Positions 24,481 through 32,309 of a DNA stretch of 64,000 bases are shown here, in pieces (the first letter of the stretch is position 1; the number at the start of each line of letters is the position of its first letter). The DNA is taken from the NCBI GenBank assembly GCA_963756155.1, contig CAVWMQ010000001.1, forward strand, positions 423,592 through 487,591, in the 5' to 3' direction. The DNA is from an uncultured delta proteobacterium (GTDB taxonomy: Bacteria; Desulfobacterota; Binatia; Binatales; Binataceae). The notes beneath the pieces were generated by a model. It saw only the letters and a program-made list of their open reading frames with translations, had not been told where the DNA came from and did not search any database. The position numbers were made by a program, and so were the translations under genes.

Positions 24481-26037
24481 ATGCTGGCGCTTCGCCGAAG
24501 GAATCTTTTGGCCAACGATTACATCGAGGCGGCGCGCGCCTACCACGAAATAACCAAGCACTCGTATACGAGCGTCCGCAGCGCCGGTCACGCGCTCGAC
24601 TGGGACTCGAAGCCGCTCGCGTACAAAATTTATCCGGAGGCGGCGTCGCTCCTGCTGCCGCGCGACTTGAGCCTTTCCGCGATGCCCGCGCTGAGCGCGA
24701 TCGCGACCGACGCGCCCGCGGACTCGGCGGCGCCGCTCGGACTCGAGCAGCTCACGCGCATCCTGTTTTGCGCCGACGGTCTGACGCGCCGCAAGCGCGT
24801 CGGCAACGAGGACTATCACTTCCGCGCCGCGCCGTCCGCGGGCGCGCTCTATCCAATCGAGATTTATCTCGCCGCGGGCGAAGTCGACGGGCTGGAGGCG
24901 GGCCTTTACCACTTTTCGCCCGCCGATCTTAAGCTGCGCGGTCTGCGCCGCGGTGACGTGCGCGCGATACTCGCGCAAGCATCCGCGAATCGACCTTCGA
25001 TCGTTCACGCACGCGCGGCGCTGGTTCTCACCTCGATTTTCTGGCGCAGCGCATGGAAGTATCGCGCGCGCGCGTATCGATATTGTTTCTGGGATGCGGG
25101 CACGATGCTCGCGAACCTGTTCGCGGCCGCATCCGCCGACGCGGTTTCAGCCGAGGCGGTGACCGCGTTCACCGACGCTCCCGTAGAAGCGCTGCTTGGA
25201 ATCGACAGCGACCGCGAGGGAGTCGTCGCGATCGTCCCGCTCGGGAGCGGCGCGCGCGAGCCGGCGCCGCCGCCCGAAATCACGCCAATTCCGTTCGAGT
25301 CGATCGAGCTGTCACAGCGCGAAGTCGTCTACGACGACATCGTAAAGATGCATCGCGAGTCGCGGCTGGTCACCGAGGCGGAGGTCCGCGCCGTGTCCGA
25401 CGCGATGCTGCCACCATCGGCACCGTCATCCGCCACGCCGGCCCGCGCGTTGAAGTTCGACAGCGTCGCTCCCGCAGATGCGATGGGCCTGGGCGAGACG
25501 ATCCTGCGTCGCGGCTCGACCCGGACATTTGCGCGCGAAGCGATTTCCGCCGAGGAGCTCGCGGCGATCCTGGCGGCGTCCAGCGCGCATCCACGCGTGG
25601 ATTTCCCGCGTCTCACCGACACGTATCTGATCGTCAACGCAGTCGATGGGATGGAGCCGGGCGCATACTACTACGCGCCCGCCACCCGCGCCGCCGCGCC
25701 CGCCTTCGAGCTTGTCAACCTGGGCAACCTCCGCGCCCAGGCTGGCTACCTGTCCCTGGAGCAGCCGCTCGGGATGGATTGCTCTGTCCTGTTGGTTTAC
25801 ATGGCCGACCTGGAACGCGCGCTAGGCGCGCTCGGTAATCGCGGCTATGGCGACGCGCACCTCGAGGCGGGGATTCTCGCCGGGCGAGCGTATCTTTCCG
25901 CCTATGCGCTCGATCGCGGTGCGACCGGTCTCACTTTCTACGACGACGATACAACCCGCTTCTTCGAACCGCACGCGGCGGGCAAGAGTCCGCTGCTGAT
26001 GGTCGCGCTCGGCGTTCCTCTTGCCCGCTCTGCCTAG
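24481..26037 (+). CDS. SagB-type dehydrogenase domain protein (nitroreductase superfamily, tandem double-domain, 518 aa)
   Basis: N-terminal YHEITKHSY motif characteristic of SagB/ThcOx-type dehydrogenase domains. Two nitroreductase-like halves (…ADGLTRRKRVG…YHFRAAPSAGALYPIEIY… and …RGSTRTFAREAIS…). Confidence 0.6.
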   Translation: MLALRRRNLLANDYIEAARAYHEITKHSYTSVRSAGHALDWDSKPLAYKIYPEAASLLLPRDLSLSAMPALSAIATDAPADSAAPLGLEQLTRILFCADGLTRRKRVGNEDYHFRAAPSAGALYPIEIYLAAGEVDGLEAGLYHFSPADLKLRGLRRGDVRAILAQASANRPSIVHARAALVLTSIFWRSAWKYRARAYRYCFWDAGTMLANLFAAASADAVSAEAVTAFTDAPVEALLGIDSDREGVVAIVPLGSGAREPAPPPEITPIPFESIELSQREVVYDDIVKMHRESRLVTEAEVRAVSDAMLPPSAPSSATPARALKFDSVAPADAMGLGETILRRGSTRTFAREAISAEELAAILAASSAHPRVDFPRLTDTYLIVNAVDGMEPGAYYYAPATRAAAPAFELVNLGNLRAQAGYLSLEQPLGMDCSVLLVYMADLERALGALGNRGYGDAHLEAGILAGRAYLSAYALDRGATGLTFYDDDTTRFFEPHAAGKSPLLMVALGVPLARSA

Positions 26038-26304
26038 TGGCAAGCGTCCGCCTCCAATCTTGTGACTGAATATTGTGCGGATGCCCGCGCAGTGGGCATC
26101 GATCGTCGCGTCCCGAGCGACATTGCAGAATACAATTGCAGAATTCACGATGGCATTCTTCTTGCGCGATGCGGATGGTTCCCATGCTTACGATGGAAAG
26201 ACTCTAGGCCTTGAGACTGAGAAGAAATCAGCCTCGCGATCGAGGAGATCTTCTGACCGCGAAGACGTCCCGCTTCCAGAGAGCGGATACCGCAAGGAGG
26301 AGAA

Positions 26305-27966
26305 ATGGCCGAACCAGCTGAAAAACCCAAAATGGTGCCCACGCTGGGACTGACGGGTGTCACCGTCAACGCGATGGCGCTGATCGCGCCTGGAGCCTTT
26401 CTGTGGATCACATTCGTCGTTCAAGCGGGCTACGCTTATCCGTCCGGGATAACCATGTGGGCCGGTATTTTTGCCGCTCTCATGCTCGCGTACGCCACCG
26501 CTATCTCGTACTCGGAACTCGCTAAGCTCTATCCAGGAGCAGGCAGTTCCTATTTCTTTGCGGAACAGGCATTTCTCAGCAAGACGCACGCTTTCAAGTT
26601 TGCCCGCATCGCCAAATTCACGATGGGATGGGCGTCGCACCTGTATTACTGGGTCTACCCCGGCGCCATGGTTGCCACGATCGGGATCATGATCGGATAC
26701 ATCGTCGGCAACTTTTTTCCTAACAGCATGAACGCCGGAACGCCGGGCCCCGTGTTCATGGCGCTGGTCGCAGTCATCTCTTCTTTCGCAGTTGCATACA
26801 TCGCGTTTCGTGGTGTGAACGGCTCGACGATGGTCAACATCGTCATCAATGCGATCCAAATCACCGCGCTGCTGTTCTTCTCCGCACTAGCGATCGCGTA
26901 CCGGGTCGGTCATCCGGAAGGGTCGCACGGCCTGGCCCTCGATGGCACCACCAAGGTCTTGCACTACGCGTTGAGTGGCGACACGCCGGCACATCCAAGT
27001 GCGTTTTCGGTCATTGCACCGCACAACTTCAGCTATGTCATGCTGCAAGCCACGATCGCGATTTTCTTGCTGGTCGGCTTCGAGTCGATCACCTCGCTCG
27101 GCGAGGAAGCGAAGGACCCCAAGCGCGATATCCCGCGCGGGGTGCTGCTCTCGCTGACGATCCAGGGTCTGTTCTGCTACATGATCGAATACTTCGCCGC
27201 CAACTATTTCATGTCGAGCGCCTACAGCCTGGCCGACGCAAAAGGCTCAGCGGCGCCGATCGGCGACATGATGACGATCATCGGTAACACCCTGCTCGGC
27301 GGGCATGGCCAGGCGTTCATGATGATCGAGGCGCTGACCGTGTTCCTGGCCCTGATAGGCACCACCCTTAGCTGTATCAACACGGGTGCGCGCGTCACCT
27401 ACGCGATGGGACGCGACGAGGAAGTACCAGAGCATTTCGGCATGCTGCATGGCGAAAACCTGACGCCTCATCGTACGATCTGGACGCTTGCGGTTATTTC
27501 CGCGGTGCTGGGCGCGTACGCGGCGCTTTATTTCTTCGCCGGCAGTTCCGCGCCGGACGACAAGACGATCGCAACGCTGCCACATAACATATGGTACGCG
27601 GTCGGAATGAGCTCCAATGCGTCTCTTACGGCTTTGCCTAACGGACTGGCGCTGGTCACCCTGATTTCAAACTTTGGAACATTCGTGGTCTATGGGTTAA
27701 CCAATCTCTGTTGCATAGTTGCGTACCGCGAGCACCATCAATTCCACGGCCTGAAACACATGGTGATACCGGTGTTCGGCGCGGTTGCGAACTTTGCCTG
27801 CATGGCCTTCTACGTCATCGGCCCGATTGAGGGACTCGGCAGCGTAAAAGAGCCTCTGATGGCGGTCGCCATAGCCATCATCTGGGGCGTCTACGGAGCT
27901 TTCTACTTCGTCCGCAACTCGAGGAAGAAGGGCAAGGAGACGGTGTTGATTAGCAAGCCTGCCTGA
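26305..27966 (+). CDS. APC-superfamily amino-acid/amine permease
   Basis: 12-TM APC architecture. RBS GCAAGGAGGAG upstream. Intrinsic terminator downstream. Confidence 0.8.
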   Translation: MAEPAEKPKMVPTLGLTGVTVNAMALIAPGAFLWITFVVQAGYAYPSGITMWAGIFAALMLAYATAISYSELAKLYPGAGSSYFFAEQAFLSKTHAFKFARIAKFTMGWASHLYYWVYPGAMVATIGIMIGYIVGNFFPNSMNAGTPGPVFMALVAVISSFAVAYIAFRGVNGSTMVNIVINAIQITALLFFSALAIAYRVGHPEGSHGLALDGTTKVLHYALSGDTPAHPSAFSVIAPHNFSYVMLQATIAIFLLVGFESITSLGEEAKDPKRDIPRGVLLSLTIQGLFCYMIEYFAANYFMSSAYSLADAKGSAAPIGDMMTIIGNTLLGGHGQAFMMIEALTVFLALIGTTLSCINTGARVTYAMGRDEEVPEHFGMLHGENLTPHRTIWTLAVISAVLGAYAALYFFAGSSAPDDKTIATLPHNIWYAVGMSSNASLTALPNGLALVTLISNFGTFVVYGLTNLCCIVAYREHHQFHGLKHMVIPVFGAVANFACMAFYVIGPIEGLGSVKEPLMAVAIAIIWGVYGAFYFVRNSRKKGKETVLISKPA

Positions 27967-27989: not shown

Positions 27990-28026
27990 GGGGCGGGCCG
28001 CGGGCAACTGCGGCTCGCCCCTTTTT
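27990..28026 (+). terminator. Rho-independent terminator after the permease gene
   Basis: 12-bp stem GGGGCGGGCCGC/GCGGCTCGCCCC (one G-U pair), loop GGGCAACT, followed by TTTTT. Confidence 0.65.
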
Positions 28027-28082: not shown

Positions 28083-28913
28083 ATGGACTCGCCTCCCGAT
28101 CCTCCTATCGATCACCGAAGTGTATTCGATCTCGCGCTGTTGTCTGATGTCGGCACCAACCGGCCCGGCAACGAGGACTCGTGTGGGCACTTCGTCGAAA
28201 GTCCTCATTGCGTGGTCTTCGCGATCGCCGACGGCGTCGGTGGCTACGAAGGCGGTGAGATCGCCAGCAAGATCGCGGTCGACACCACGCTTGAGGTGTT
28301 CCGCGAAAGCCCCGTAGAGTGGGGCGGGGCCAAGCGCCTCTATCGCGCCATCCAGCGCGCCAACATCGAAATCCACAACAAGGCACTGACGGTTCCCGAA
28401 CTGGGCCGCATGGCGACGACGCTGACCGCAGCGGTCGTCGACAAGGGAATGGTCTCTGCGGTCCATGTCGGCGATTGCCGCCTTTACCTGGTCCGTCACG
28501 GCAAGATTTCGCAGGTGACCAAAGACCACACCATGGTTGGCGAGCGCGTTCGGATGGGCCTGATGACCCAGCAGGCTGCCAAAGAACATCCCGAGCGCTC
28601 GATGCTGCTGCGAAGCCTCGGCCATGAGCTTATCGTCTCGATGGACCGCATTTCCCTGCCGCTGATTCAGGACGACCGCCTGATACTATCCAGCGACGGG
28701 CTCTACAACGTGCTCGAGGACGGCGACCTCGAAGCTCTCAGTCGCGGACCCGCCGAGGAGGCCTGCCGCGAAATGATCCAGACCGCCAACCAACGCGGCA
28801 CCGCCGACAATCTGACGGTCGCCGTGTTCAAGATGATAGCTGCAACCGAACACCATCCCGCCTCGGGCGGCTTCCTCGGCCGGATCGCCGCGATGTTTCG
28901 CAGGGGTCGCTAA
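28083..28913 (+). CDS. PP2C-family Ser/Thr protein phosphatase (Stp/PrpC-like)
   Basis: FAIADGVGGYEGGEIAS, HVGDCRLYLVRHGKISQVTKDH, ILSSDGLYN metal-binding motifs. Confidence 0.85.
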   Translation: MDSPPDPPIDHRSVFDLALLSDVGTNRPGNEDSCGHFVESPHCVVFAIADGVGGYEGGEIASKIAVDTTLEVFRESPVEWGGAKRLYRAIQRANIEIHNKALTVPELGRMATTLTAAVVDKGMVSAVHVGDCRLYLVRHGKISQVTKDHTMVGERVRMGLMTQQAAKEHPERSMLLRSLGHELIVSMDRISLPLIQDDRLILSSDGLYNVLEDGDLEALSRGPAEEACREMIQTANQRGTADNLTVAVFKMIAATEHHPASGGFLGRIAAMFRRGR

Positions 28914-28993
28914 CGGAAACTCCATTGCTTGGCCGCGGCGGCGGGTGTTAACGTCCGCGCCAGACTGAATTTCCCCTCCGGACGGCACGATTC

Positions 28994-30013
28994 ATGCGCG
29001 AGGTCAGCGTTGGCGAAAAGCTCGATCAGTACCAGCTGACCGATCTCATTGCCCGCAGCGGAATGGCCTCGATCTTCAAAGCCACCGACCTCATCAGCGG
29101 CGACACCGTCGCCATCAAAGTTCCCTACATGCAGTTCGAGAGCGACGTCGTCTTCTACGGCCGCTTCCAGCGCGAGGAAGAGGTGGGCCGACGCCTCAAC
29201 CATCCCAACATCGTCAAAGTGCTCACCCCCAGGCGCAAAAGCCGCATGTACATCGCGATGGAGTACGTCGACGGCCTCTCGCTGCGCGCGATCATGCGCG
29301 ACCAGCGCCCGATGCCGGTCGACAAGGCACTCGGCTTCGCGCGCCAGATCTGTGAGGCGCTCATCTATATGCATGGCGAAGGCGTGGTGCATCGCGACCT
29401 CAAGCCCGAGAACATGCTGATCACCAATGACGGGGTGCTGAAGATCATGGATTTCGGCATCGCGCTCGACGAATCGGCTCGCCGACTCACCTGGTCGGGC
29501 CTCTCCTCGACCATCGGCACGCCCGACTACATGGCGCCCGAGCAGGTCAGCGGCCGGCGCGGCGACGCGCGCACCGACATCTATTCGCTCGGCACCATCC
29601 TGTACGAGATGCTTACCGGCGAGCTGCCCTATCAGGGCTCCAACGTTTACAACGTGATGAAGGCCAAGACTGCCGAGGATCCCCAGCCGCCCAGCCGCTA
29701 CGTTCCCGATCTCGATCCCCACCTCGAGGACATCATCCTGCATGCGATCGCGCGCAATCCGCGCGACCGCTACGCCACCGCGGCCGAGATGCTCGAGGAT
29801 TTACGCGACCCCTCGCGCGTGCAGCCCGGCAATCGCGCTTCGGCGCTGCATCCGCCGAGCATCCGCTTCAGAAAGATCAAGCGCGGAGTCAGCATCGCGG
29901 TGTTTCTGGTCTCACTGGCGGTCATCTTCGTGTTGATGATTTGGCTCGCCAACAAATACCCGGCTGCCCCGAACCAGAAGGCGCATCCATCCTTCCGCGG
30001 AGAGGTGAGATGA
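28994..30013 (+). CDS. Hanks-type Ser/Thr protein kinase with a C-terminal membrane anchor
   Basis: AIKVP (VAIK), HRDLKPENMLI, DFGIA, GTPDYMAPEQ motifs. C-terminal TM segment GVSIAVFLVSLAVIFVLMIWL. Stop overlaps the amt start (ATGA). Confidence 0.9.
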   Translation: MREVSVGEKLDQYQLTDLIARSGMASIFKATDLISGDTVAIKVPYMQFESDVVFYGRFQREEEVGRRLNHPNIVKVLTPRRKSRMYIAMEYVDGLSLRAIMRDQRPMPVDKALGFARQICEALIYMHGEGVVHRDLKPENMLITNDGVLKIMDFGIALDESARRLTWSGLSSTIGTPDYMAPEQVSGRRGDARTDIYSLGTILYEMLTGELPYQGSNVYNVMKAKTAEDPQPPSRYVPDLDPHLEDIILHAIARNPRDRYATAAEMLEDLRDPSRVQPGNRASALHPPSIRFRKIKRGVSIAVFLVSLAVIFVLMIWLANKYPAAPNQKAHPSFRGEVR

Positions 30014-31455
30014 CGAAGGCATTCGCAAAATCTCCCCTTCGACTCGGCGCTGTCGCCGCCATCGCCGCCGCCGTGATGCTCGCCGCCGGGGTCGCGCACG
30101 CCCAGGCGGGCGTTGCACAGGTCCCCTTCGATCAGTGGCTCAACCTCGCCTGGGTGCTGATCGCCGGTTTCCTCGTGATGTTCATGCAGGTCGGGTTCGC
30201 GATGCTCGAGACCGGCTTCACCCGCTCCAAAAACGCCGTCAACACGATGGCGATGAATCTCATCATTTATCCGATTGGTGTGATCGGATTCTGGCTCACC
30301 GGCTATGCGTTCATGATGGGCGGGGTGCATGCGTGGCCGTCGCTCGGCACCGCGGCGATCTCGCATCATGAGATCGCGATTACGCTCGGCGGTCATAAGT
30401 TCGGAATTCTCGGCTTCAGCAAATTCGCCCTGCTGAGCGTCAGCCACGATCCGGGCAGCCTCGGGATGTTCCTGTTCACCCTAGTGTTCATGGACACCGC
30501 GGCGACCATTCCCACCGGCGCGATGGCCGAGCGCTGGAAATTCTCCGCGTTTTTCATCTACGGACTGTTCATGTCGATGTTTCTCTACCCGCTCTACGGC
30601 AACTGGGTGTGGGGCGGCGGATGGCTCTCGCAACTCGGCGCCAACCTGGGACTCGGGCACGGCCACGTCGACTTCGCCGGTTCCTCGGTGGTTCACATGA
30701 CCGGCGGCGTCACCGCGCTGGCCGGCTCGTTGGTGCTCGGACCGCGGATCGGCAAGTTCCGCCGCGACGGAATGATCGGCCTGCTGCCCGGTCACAATCT
30801 GCCGATGGCGATGGTGGGGACGCTCATCCTCGCCTTCGGATGGTTCGGCTTCAACGCCGGCTCGACCCTGGCGGCCTCCGATTCGCGCATCGGGCTCATC
30901 GCGGCGAACACCATGCTCGCCTCCGCCGCCGGTGCGCTCGCGGCCCTGCTTTATCTGTGGGAGCGTTTCAAAAAACCCGACGTCGCAATGGCCTGCAACG
31001 GATTGCTGGGCGGCCTGGTCGCGATCACCGCGCCGTGCGCATTCGTTTCCCCGGTGACCGCGGTCCTGATCGGCCTCATCGCCGGCCTGATCGTGGTCGG
31101 CGCCGTGATCACGCTCGAGCGGCGCTTTCGCGTCGACGATCCCGTCGGCGCGATCGCGGTGCACGGCGCGTGCGGAGCGTGGGGCGCGCTCGCGGTGGGA
31201 ATTTTCGCCGATGGAAGCTACGGCGACGGATGGAACCAGGTCGGCGGCCCCGTGCGCGGCCTGCTCTACGGCGACCCCGGCCAGTTCTTCGCGCAGTTGA
31301 TCGGCATCACCGTCAACCTGCTCGTCGTGTTCAGCCTCGCGATGCTGTTCTTCGTGATCGTCGAGCGCTTGATCGGAAACCGCGTCCCCGCCGAAGTCGA
31401 ATGGACCGGCCTCGACGCGCTCGAGATGGGCAGCGACGCGTACCCCAACGTGTGA
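30010..31455 (+). CDS. amt: Ammonium transporter (Amt/MEP family)
   Basis: Signal peptide. Amt signature FAGSSVVHMTGGVTALAGSLVLGPRIGKF, twin-His region, and 11 TM helices. Translationally coupled to the kinase. Confidence 0.85.
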   Translation: MTKAFAKSPLRLGAVAAIAAAVMLAAGVAHAQAGVAQVPFDQWLNLAWVLIAGFLVMFMQVGFAMLETGFTRSKNAVNTMAMNLIIYPIGVIGFWLTGYAFMMGGVHAWPSLGTAAISHHEIAITLGGHKFGILGFSKFALLSVSHDPGSLGMFLFTLVFMDTAATIPTGAMAERWKFSAFFIYGLFMSMFLYPLYGNWVWGGGWLSQLGANLGLGHGHVDFAGSSVVHMTGGVTALAGSLVLGPRIGKFRRDGMIGLLPGHNLPMAMVGTLILAFGWFGFNAGSTLAASDSRIGLIAANTMLASAAGALAALLYLWERFKKPDVAMACNGLLGGLVAITAPCAFVSPVTAVLIGLIAGLIVVGAVITLERRFRVDDPVGAIAVHGACGAWGALAVGIFADGSYGDGWNQVGGPVRGLLYGDPGQFFAQLIGITVNLLVVFSLAMLFFVIVERLIGNRVPAEVEWTGLDALEMGSDAYPNV

Positions 31456-31693: not shown

Positions 31694-32309
31694 CTAGAGT
31701 CCCGGAACCTTGGGAGTTTCCTTCCACGCAGTGCGCGCGCGGATCGCTTCCAGGTACTTGCGCGTCTTTGGGAAGTCACCGAGATTGAAACCCGCGCGGT
31801 CGATCACATTGAGCACGGGACCATAAGCGCAATCGACCAGCGTAAACTCATCGCCCAGCATCCATTTGCGGTTGGCAAGCTGGCCTTCGACGATCCTGAT
31901 CACGTCGGGTAAAGCCTTCTCGCCGCGAGCGATCGCGGCTTCGTCGGCGGGAGCGCCTGTTAGCTTCACCGCGATCCGGTTGAAGGCGAGCTCGGTCGCC
32001 GGCGGCGAGATGTGCGCGGACAGGAAGAAGAGCCAGCGCAGCGCGTCCGCACGGCCGGCCGCCGATGACGGCCACAGCTTTCCGGTCTTGTCACCGAGGT
32101 AGGCCAGGATCGCGTGCGATTCCCCACAGCGTAAGATCGCCGTCGGTGAGCACCGGTACGCGGCCAACCGGGTTGAAGGCCAGGAACTCGGGCCTACGCT
32201 GTTCGCGCTTTGTCAGATCGACCGGGACGATCTCGCAATCCAGTTTCATCTCGAGCATCGCGAAGCGGACCTTCTGCGGATTGGGTGACGGAAAATAGTA
32301 GAGTTTCAT
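31694..32309 (-). pseudogene. Glutathione S-transferase interrupted by a +1 frameshift (GGGG run near 32122-32125)
   Basis: N-terminal ORF MKLYYFPSPNPQKV…VLTDGDLTLW then goes out of frame. The C-terminal ORF resumes …ESHAILAYLGDK… (GST C-terminal domain). In-frame sequence would be ctgtgggaatcgcac; observed is ctgtggggaatcgcac. Confidence 0.65.

Follow-up and report, generated by a model that had tools for sequence, protein, structure and literature searches.

In a 64-kb stretch of DNA from an uncultured Binataceae bacterium (contig CAVWMQ010000001.1, positions 423,592 to 487,591; 64,000 nucleotides, hereafter the window), the genes for a PP2C-type Ser/Thr phosphatase, a membrane-anchored Hanks-type Ser/Thr kinase and an ammonium transporter (Amt) follow one another on the same strand. 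The kinase–Amt pair is conserved across two phylum-level lineages, the Binataceae and the Myxococcota, and the Amts that belong to it carry a Ser or Thr in the C-terminal tail, Ser475 in the window, at a position that is not Ser or Thr in most of their nearest relatives. By the textbook account, ammonium transporters of prokaryotes are regulated by GlnK. We regard the chances as about evenly balanced that in this system the kinase and the phosphatase reversibly phosphorylate the co-encoded transporters, with Ser475 as the switch in this Amt clade, functionally replacing the GlnK plug.

Phosphatase, kinase and ammonium transporter

The order PP2C–kinase–Amt on one strand, the membrane anchor of the kinase and the overlap of kinase and Amt genes, all proposed in the initial annotation, are borne out by the open reading frames, by Pfam profiles and by the sequence itself. 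The phosphatase gene (28083–28913, +) encodes a soluble PP2C (PPM) protein of 276 aa, which has no membrane segment in hydropathy analysis and matches Pfam PP2C_2 (E = 1e-19; 71.5 bits against a cutoff of 24) as well as Pfam PP2C. It aligns end to end with active bacterial PP2C structures (E = 4e-31) and carries the NED, DG(V/M)GG, SDG and DN motifs. Since its score with the NCBIfam Stp1/IreP equivalog is 210 bits, below the cutoff of 230, it is not called an Stp1 orthologue. As a clue to the substrate, the nearest solved relative is uninformative: Stp1, PstP and a group of entries that we take to be of the tPphA type score alike.

The kinase (28994–30013, +; 339 aa) is of the Hanks Ser/Thr type (Pfam Pkinase, E = 4.5e-50, 170.9 bits) and consists of a PknB-like catalytic domain, in which the VAIK, HRDLKPEN, DFG and APE motifs are all present in alignment to PknB, a linker of ~25 aa, one C-terminal transmembrane helix and an external tail of 20 residues, with no sensor domain. 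Its anchor is a single strong hydrophobic segment at residues 298–319 (GVSIAVFLVSLAVIFVLMIWLA; 29885–29950, +; hydropathy peak 2.98), preceded by RFRKIKR. Assignment to the PASTA kinases of the PknB/Stk1 type was rejected, given the shortness of the part beyond the helix and a match to NCBIfam PknB_PASTA (NF033483) that reaches 304 bits against a cutoff of 450 and spans model positions 7–277, the kinase domain only. Orthologues fall into more than 100 clusters of 337–339 aa at ~75% identity, named, where a name is given, as Candidatus Binataceae; the architecture of a single transmembrane helix and a short tail is retained in all relatives, whether fused or split. Among eukaryotic proteins of solved structure, the best relatives are CIPK23 and CIPK24, a resemblance that we dismiss as the usual CAMK-group likeness of PknB-like kinases. 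The intact catalytic motifs of the kinase and the full-length alignment of the phosphatase argue for functional enzymes, and the two are best explained as an antagonistic pair.

The Amt gene (30010–31455, +) begins inside the end of the kinase gene: the two share the tetranucleotide ATGA (30010–30013, +), made up of the Amt start codon (30010–30012) and the kinase TGA (30011–30013), with GGAGAGG immediately 5'. The 481-aa product has an N-terminal signal peptide and a shortened C-terminal region, and its place in the Amt family is given by both Pfam Ammonium_transp (PF00909; E = 5e-111, 371.6 bits against 23.2) and TIGR00836 (382 bits against 343.3). The pore residues, that is, the Phe gate, Trp148, Asp160, His168/His318 and Ser219 in E. 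coli numbering, are present, and they are conserved in 30/30 clade members except for one Ser219-to-Ala change. The window holds no second Amt, kinase or PP2C gene. Soil metagenome contigs from JGI (L004–L006) match the whole cluster at 99–100% identity. Compared with Ks-Amt5 and Sd-Amt1, the Amt has an insertion of ~25 residues (VHAWPSLGTAAISHHEIAITLGGHKF, residues ~105–130, DNA 30322–30399) after the second hydrophobic segment, which is probably periplasmic.

Conservation of the gene linkage

Conservation was followed from the kinase side in one genome per GTDB species, where the best 80 loci were kept and the partners were located by tblastn with the window proteins and GlnK. Among the 21 Binataceae loci, the PP2C gene is separate and adjacent in 19, the permease that precedes it in the window is present in 18, and a PII gene in three; Amt is the next gene 3' of the kinase in 19 of 20 informative loci, of which 18 were counted by script and one (L041) has an Amt behind a frameshifted kinase. 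The 15 Myxococcota-like loci, with kinases of 53–67% identity, have a separate, adjacent PP2C gene in six cases, the permease in seven, PII in two and Amt as the next 3' gene in 11 of 13 informative cases. Thirty-seven loci come from other phyla (Verrucomicrobiota, Planctomycetota, Nitrospirota, Acidobacteriota, Gemmatimonadota, Eremiobacterota, Chloroflexota, Geomonas, Desulfobacteraceae and Roseiarcus); here the PP2C is fused to the kinase in 32 and adjacent in four, the permease is found in 31, PII in 14, and Amt directly 3' in two and anywhere in the locus in 22. Seven distant kinases (44–46% identity) have neither PP2C nor permease, Amt or PII beside them and serve as an internal negative control.

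The junction is conserved along with the order. Nearly all Binataceae loci, and L024, L027, L030, L032 and L034 as well, have kinase and Amt overlapping by ATGA or GTGA, while the remaining Myxococcota-like loci have gaps of 1–20 nt; the ATGA junction recurs in ~25 species-level genomes, and the ATGA/GTGA overlap is kept across both phylum-level lineages. Kinase and Amt are thus a conserved, probably translationally coupled unit. In the 32 fused loci, by contrast with the separate genes of the window, PP2C (N-terminal) and kinase (C-terminal) form one open reading frame of ~600 aa that retains the C-terminal anchor. The fusion occurs in Verrucomicrobiota, Planctomycetota, Nitrospirota, Acidobacteriota, Geomonas, Desulfobacteraceae and Eremiobacterota, and Pfam confirms both domains in two examples (L053, L072). 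In most of the other phyla recovered, the fused enzymes usually adjoin this permease too, and glnK and amt are often close by; those without the orthologous permease adjoin an OmpL-like porin and an NMT1-type ABC transporter (L064, L067) or another AA_permease (L061). The linkage is maintained across at least eight phyla through divergent, convergent, fused and split arrangements, and its deepest conserved core is permease, PP2C and kinase. This gene content points to a family of kinase/phosphatase enzymes that act close to the membrane and are devoted to systems of nitrogen uptake. Both arrangements are found in cultured bacteria, the split kinase–Amt pair in Anaeromyxobacter oryzisoli SG63 (L038) and the fused PP2C-kinase in Geomonas sp. 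Red32 (L072).

The same linkage appears when the search starts from the Amt, for which 80 metagenome loci were scanned. The kinase lies directly 5' in 31/31 informative Amts of at least 67% identity (67–84%) and in 0/32 Amts of 56–65% identity with at least 1.1 kb of 5' DNA; one further Amt (L090, 81% identity) was left out because it has too little 5' DNA to judge. Linked tails read EMG[S/T][D/E/Q]AY plus two or three residues (three in 30 loci, two in one), and at the position of Glu401 of E. coli AmtB they carry Ser in 29 and Thr in two, whereas the unlinked Amts have V/A/I/M there in 29 and S/T in three, with a median of 15 residues after the Tyr. The nearest unlinked Amt (L122, 65% identity) has Ala at this position. 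In the genome set, 23 Ser and 7 Thr occupy it in 30 kinase-adjacent Amts, as against 2 Ser in 31 others. Ser/Thr at this site and kinase linkage go together (Fisher p = 7e-15, without phylogenetic correction), but the test is not phylogenetically independent, because the linked Amts form one clade; within that clade, Ser and Thr interchange at the site (52 S, 9 T). The adjacency of a Ser/Thr kinase and Amt, whose conservation the initial annotation had left to a neighborhood search, therefore holds from either side of the pair, and both directions support phosphorylation of the transporters as the better reading.

The C-terminal tail of the ammonium transporter

A phosphorylatable residue in the Amt tail, which had likewise been proposed as a check, is present and clade-specific, being Ser or Thr in all 30 genomic and all 31 metagenomic linked Amts. 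The tail LIGNRVPAEVEWTGLDALEMGSDAY aligns with TVGLRVPEEQEREGLDVNSHGENAY of E. coli AmtB, such that its ExxGxD corresponds to E390/G393/D395, Met473 to His399, Ser475 to Glu401 (in SHGENAY) and Tyr478 to Tyr404. The candidate phospho-acceptor Ser475 (codon 31432–31434, +), in the segment GLDALEMG-S-DAYPNV and the peptide LDALEMGSDAYPNV, lies between ExxGxD and the conserved Tyr, three residues before the Tyr, and the protein ends three residues after it. Of the canonical C-terminal pattern ExxGxD...H-G-E-x-A-Y, the ExxGxD and the Tyr are kept, while His is replaced by Met and Glu by Ser or Thr in every clade member. These positions belong to a part of the protein with a known role: R, ExxGxD and Tyr are universally conserved C-terminal residues that dock onto intracellular loops 1 and 3 (ICL1/ICL3) in open transporters, the C-terminal segment governs opening and closing of Mep2 and AMT1, and the phosphosite Thr460 of plant AMT1;1 is in the same segment (PMC4852598). 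The surroundings of Ser475, S-D-A-Y(+3)-P(+4) with Glu at −3, fit the C-terminal half of the broad motif of mycobacterial, PknB-like Ser/Thr kinases, XααααTX(X/V)φ(P/R)I (PMC6888350), a fit that is consistent with phosphorylation and not diagnostic of it. The permease offers a possible second phosphosite, Ser537 (27913–27915), which is situated in the basic cytoplasmic tail F-x-R-N-S-K-K-K-G-K and is invariant in 25/25 orthologues from at least eight phyla.

From these elements, a mechanism can be proposed. The single C-terminal helix would hold the kinase, and with it the PP2C partner, at the inner face of the membrane, where the kinase would phosphorylate Ser475 in EMG-S-DAY, the place at which GlnK-partnered Amts have the Glu of H-G-E. 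The conserved Tyr beyond Ser475 would dock the tail onto intracellular loop 3, and phosphorylation would switch the tail between a docked, open and an undocked, closed state, thereby doing for this clade what the GlnK plug does for AmtB, CIPK23 for plant AMT1 and Npr1 for fungal Mep2. As phospho-Ser mimics the canonical Glu and might thus open the transporter, our guess is that the kinase activates uptake. The sequences show which genes are present, that their linkage is conserved, that PP2C and kinase can be fused, that kinase and Amt are coupled and that the Ser/Thr is specific to the clade; the action of the kinase on Ser475, the direction of its effect and the input signal we infer.

Several observations weigh against this reading. 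The permease, and not Amt, is the partner that the kinase has throughout. One Binataceae locus (L019) has permease, PP2C and kinase followed by a convergent radical-SAM gene and no Amt, and the kinase is also without Amt in L033 and L035. The Ser/Thr characterizes a single clade and might be fixed there on structural grounds, and Ser occurs at the same site in a few Amts with no adjacent kinase (L158, L161). Finally, Amts linked to fused kinases have tails of the form EV[SA]V[TNA]AYPDF with no strictly conserved hydroxyl, and a site of the Ser475 type is therefore not general to the whole family; L057 combines a Ser at the tail site with a fused kinase and glnK, both adjacent. Taking both sides together, we hold it possible, if somewhat less than probable, that there is an undescribed, widespread module in which a membrane-tethered PP2C/Hanks-kinase, often one protein, phospho-switches nitrogen-uptake transporters, and that in Binataceae and Myxococcota it took this Amt clade over from GlnK by putting phospho-Ser/Thr in the place of Glu.

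Promoter, hairpin and extent of the operon

The gene preceding PP2C encodes an APC-superfamily permease of 553 aa (26305–27966, +; Pfam AA_permease_2, E = 1.5e-21). About 140 nt 5' of it, pattern matching finds a candidate sigma-54 (−24/−12) promoter, TGGCATTCTTCTTGCG (26151–26166, +), which has the correct GG-N10-GC spacing and agrees with the element TGGCAC-N5-TTGCW sought 5' of the first gene, and is accordingly classed as a predicted promoter. Since boxes of this kind are not above chance across the window (16 against 22 expected), its weight comes only from positional conservation: 16 other Binataceae loci have a TGGCAY-N5-YTGC box 60–155 nt 5' of their permease orthologue, and sigma-54-type boxes also precede glnK-permease in Verrucomicrobia and Roseiarcus. 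No such box was found before any PP2C gene; two loose matches lie ~320–330 nt 5' of kinase genes (L018, L039).

After the permease gene and 60 nt before the PP2C start, there is a GC-rich hairpin (27990–28021; 14 bp, 12 of them GC), which is followed by TTTTT, the whole element occupying 27990–28026 (+). It was initially taken for an intrinsic terminator that sets PP2C, kinase and Amt apart as a unit. The hairpin and the T-run are indeed there, but outside the window a clear T-run is seen in the closest relative (L007) alone and a weak one or none in most other loci, whereas a hairpin at the same position, with other stem sequences that reflect compensatory changes, occurs in 9/9 other Binataceae loci examined (L007, L008, L009, L012, L022, L023, L003, L031 and L020). 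Nor does the element isolate the three genes, since it follows a permease gene of the same conserved cluster, and no sigma-70-like promoter was found between the hairpin and PP2C. It may be read as an intercistronic stem-loop or as a leaky terminator. The simplest reading would be a single sigma-54-dependent operon in the order sigma-54-type promoter, APC permease, hairpin, PP2C, tail-anchored Hanks kinase and Amt, in which the stem-loop would keep the regulators at a lower level of expression than the permease. The cluster is best explained as a nitrogen-scavenging operon of a Candidatus Binataceae bacterium, and this nitrogen context, to which the sigma-54-type promoter as well as glnK and extra amt genes in the clusters of relatives point, speaks for phosphorylation of the transporters.

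What the permease carries is not assigned by its family: NCBIfam matches are all far below cutoff (for example, 94.5 against 556.8), the closest solved structures are transporters of the GkApcT/CAT type with a weak E value of 5e-8, and NCBIfam, solved-structure and large protein searches alike return only "APC family permease". Permease orthologues outside Binataceae (for example, L053 7143–9065, L072 7072–8982 and L045 7016–9076) have an insertion of ~80–130 aa between the fifth and sixth hydrophobic segments, which is rich in K, D, G and P, probably extracytoplasmic, and lost or never gained in Binataceae.

PII proteins in the window and its relatives

The absence of a PII gene, on which the initial annotation had laid stress, is true of the 64-kb window, where tblastn with E. 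coli GlnK and GlnB gives a best E value of 1.5. It also describes the clade, in that a glnK lies next to 1/31 of the kinase-linked Amts and to 12/32 of their nearest relatives without the kinase. The stronger claim, that PII has been replaced, does not hold at the level of the system, since glnK belongs to the cluster in many relatives, being present in 19/73 kinase-family loci and often directly 5' of the permease. Three Binataceae loci (L009, L023, L088) have it there, as do several Verrucomicrobia; in L037, amt-glnK-amt lies just 5' of PP2C-kinase-amt, and in the fused-kinase lineages the 3' Amt has its own glnK in L057, L068, L072 and L076. Many of the linked GlnKs, including those of L009 and L023, read YRGSEY, with Ser49, and Tyr51 is always kept; position 49 is Ala, Leu or Arg in L040, L051, L054, L058, L059, L068, L072 and L076. 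As a marker of a PII kinase, Ser49 is therefore mixed and largely lineage-bound.

Alternative explanations

The initial annotation proposed a phospho-signalling module that either regulates Amt or is fed by it. The tie to Amt stands, given the conserved pairing; the second option, an Amt acting as transceptor, has become weaker, and we consider it unlikely. It would have the Amt, and possibly the permease, sense substrate and activate the sensor-less kinase, which would act on soluble targets of nitrogen assimilation until PP2C resets them. A kinase that has no input domain of its own and is translationally coupled to Amt is what such a scheme calls for, and actinobacterial PknG provides a precedent, as its signal comes from GlnX, a membrane protein, and GlnH, a binding protein, and it controls glutamate metabolism via GarA. 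The closest solved relatives of the Amt are, moreover, Ks-Amt5 (E = 2e-67) and Sd-Amt1 (4e-60), followed by Af-Amt1 (2e-48) and, well behind, AmtB (~1e-43). The N1/N2 signature of ammonium receptors is QX6EX15NX2D[F/T]X54-60TX2[S/T], and many proteins of the N1/N2 sequence cluster are working transporters according to its authors (PMC11152129). Q60, E67, N83, T166 and T169 of the window Amt fit the signature, but its Asp is Ile in the window and I/V in 30/30 clade members, the following F/T is Tyr in 30/30, and the spacing to the TxxT pair is longer because of the ~25-aa periplasmic insertion. With the Asp missing throughout the clade and the pore intact, the Amt is not filed as a sensor Amt; membership of that class (AmR) was rejected also for want of a transducer fused to the C-terminus. 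The departure from the sensor signature weakens the transceptor scheme, as do the intact transport residues and the lack of a conserved FHA-domain or regulator gene in the cluster, and the clade-specific Ser/Thr of the tail would be left without explanation.

That the kinase and phosphatase are general-purpose enzymes, transcribed with nitrogen-uptake genes and acting on unrelated substrates, is very unlikely. Bacterial Hanks kinases are often pleiotropic, the permease substrate is not assigned by family searches, and three loci have the kinase without Amt, all of which would suit mere co-regulation; nevertheless, the linkage persists across at least eight phyla despite rearrangements, the overlap of kinase and amt is conserved, and the type of Amt tail matches kinase linkage exactly. 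A role as PII kinase is slightly easier to defend and still quite unlikely. Here, the kinase/PP2C pair would modify the T-loop of GlnK at Ser49 and so set the plugging of permease and Amt by GlnK, regulating the transporters only indirectly. The frequency of glnK in the kinase-family loci argues for this, as does Ser49 in many linked GlnKs, as in Synechococcus PII, including two next to the permease (L009, L023). Entries presumably of the tPphA type are among the top solved relatives of the PP2C, although Stp1 and PstP score the same. In cyanobacteria, the PP2C PphA is the PII phosphatase, while the PII kinase is unidentified (PMC11863333), which keeps this role a live minority hypothesis. On the other hand, the window and most Binataceae loci have no PII, several linked GlnKs have Ala, Leu or Arg in place of Ser49, and Tyr51 is kept throughout, which leaves room for uridylylation; neither the stop/start overlap of kinase and Amt nor the Ser/Thr of the tail would be accounted for. 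Direct phosphorylation of the transporters thus remains our preferred reading, and the same enzyme family may explain the orphan kinase of Pseudomonas nitrate-assimilation operons and may act as PII kinase where glnK is linked.

Relation to known systems

The amtB-glnK pair of E. coli resembles the window operon in the constant presence of a regulator partner at the cytoplasmic face, in the pore residues and ExxGxD...Y of the transporter, and in a sigma-54-type promoter in a nitrogen-regulated context. It differs in that the partner in the window is a Ser/Thr kinase with PP2C and not PII, a glnK being adjacent in only one of the 31 linked clade members, in that His399 and Glu401 of AmtB are Met and Ser/Thr in the window clade, and in that the tail ends 2–3 residues after the Tyr.

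In plants, CIPK23 is the kinase of AMT1;1 and AMT1;3. These transporters have a phospho-acceptor (Thr460) near ExxGxD, in a segment that docks onto ICL1/ICL3 (PMC4852598, PMC6760267), and the candidate site of the window Amt lies in the same segment; the N1/N2 motif analysis places AMT1 proteins in its "cluster 2", together with Ks-Amt5 and Sd-Amt1 (PMC11152129). The latter two are the closest solved relatives of the window Amt, which nonetheless is without the Asp that defines the cluster. The plant site, GMD-M-T, is four residues earlier than that of the window, GLD-x-x-x-x-x-S, and the window kinase is encoded beside its transporter and anchored in the membrane. In fungal Mep2, a kinase, together with phosphatases, switches the transporter by changing the conformation of its C-terminal region near ExxGxD. 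Mep2 is activated by Npr1 phosphorylation of Ser457 (PMC4852598). This site is in a fungal-specific autoinhibitory extension that is absent from the window Amt, whose tail is shorter than that of any canonical Amt. One-to-one association of an Amt with a signalling enzyme is found in Ks-Amt5, an Amt-histidine kinase fusion, and Sd-Amt1, an Amt-HAMP-GGDEF protein; in the window, however, the putative transducer is a Hanks kinase on a separate polypeptide and the N1/N2 Asp is missing from all 30 clade members.

Mycobacteria also encode Hanks kinases beside the transport or sensing membrane proteins with which they work, namely, PknF with the ABC transporter Rv1747 and PknG with GlnX and GlnH, and PknG is linked to nitrogen and glutamate metabolism. 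These pairs involve other transporter families and no Amt, and they use FHA-domain docking, which is absent in the window system. With the PII Ser49/PphA system of cyanobacteria, the likeness is a PP2C in nitrogen signalling and Ser49 in many cluster-linked GlnKs; the differences are the lack of PII in the 64-kb window and the inconsistency of Ser49 in the linked GlnKs. PP2C-kinase fusions were listed in 2005 in Pseudomonas and Deinococcus and never characterized (PMC1262709). They have the same PP2C(N)-kinase(C) architecture as the 32 fused loci, in contrast to the separate genes of the window. One of them, gi|9947763, is probably PA1782 of P. aeruginosa, a predicted Ser/Thr kinase (PMC11197903, PMC8560001). 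By locus number, PA1782 lies in the neighborhood of a nitrogen transporter, between the nitrate transporter gene nasA (PA1783) and nirB (PA1781), both of which are strongly NtrBC-dependent (PMC7214821).

A 2023 review of prokaryotic Amts names no regulators other than GlnK and fused histidine kinases (PMC10433425). In the literature that we searched, a bacterial pair of an Amt and a Hanks kinase is not described, and nothing related came up except the 2005 note on PP2C-kinase fusions. Gating of Amts by C-terminal phosphorylation in plants and fungi and kinase-transporter gene pairs in mycobacteria are known; the bacterial Amt-Hanks kinase system appears to be new. It ties a discrete Amt clade of abundant soil and peat lineages (Binataceae, Polyangia, Anaeromyxobacter) to a kinase/phosphatase pair and offers a candidate phosphosite in the very region that gates eukaryotic AMT and Mep2. 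These features suggest that phosphorylation of the Amt tail may serve as a switch of ammonium uptake in some bacteria, as it does in plants and fungi. If so, this would be the first bacterial Amt known to be gated by phosphorylation on Ser/Thr, a parallel to plants and fungi reached by convergence. Phospho-gating of transporters would then not be a eukaryotic invention, and the orphan PP2C-kinase proteins, a large family, would acquire a function. Carriers are available in culture for both forms, A. oryzisoli SG63 for the kinase–Amt pair and Geomonas sp. Red32 for the fused enzyme.

Neighboring genes and other observations

The row of five same-strand genes that ends with Amt starts with a SagB-type protein of the nitroreductase fold (24481–26037, +). 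This "peptide dehydrogenase" of 518 aa, with two nitroreductase-fold stretches, is a conserved 5' neighbor of the cluster throughout Binataceae and lies directly 5' of the kinase in L001 and L014; no cyclodehydratase or precursor peptide is evident alongside it. Rfam structured RNAs, riboswitches and tRNAs are absent across the whole window. In several Binataceae an OmpL-like β-barrel porin (PF07642, BBP2) is encoded between permease and PP2C (for example, L010 7203–8537), and such porins are also the neighbors of the permease-less fused PP2C-kinases mentioned above (L064 7227–8624, −; L067 7247–8557, −). In Nitrospirota (L053 11147–11470), Geomonas (L072 11216–11545) and an unclassified metagenome-assembled genome (L042 10944–11345), the gene for a small YnfA/UPF0060 membrane protein (~107 aa) separates that for the fused PP2C-kinase from amt.

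Myxococcota-like clusters are rearranged with the gene set retained (L034 9929–16906, L038 5670–12852, L105, L106), as in the order kinase-Amt-permease-PP2C-Amt or with PP2C divergent from the kinase and a second Amt behind PP2C. In some metagenome-assembled genomes from long reads, Amt, kinase or PP2C is split by frameshifts (L037 10948–12449, L041 9037–11015), which are probably assembly errors. A few genes 3' of kinase-Amt, other Binataceae have an AsnC-type regulator and glutamate synthase, gltB (L001 15660–17017, L003 12040–17017), where the window carries a glutathione S-transferase (GST) gene and an ABC-2 transporter. In the GST gene 3' of amt (31694–32309, −), an additional G in a run of Gs near 32125 splits the reading frame in two; the near-identical metagenome contig L004 has the gene intact (204 aa). 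The split is due either to an error in sequencing a homopolymer or to recent decay into a pseudogene.

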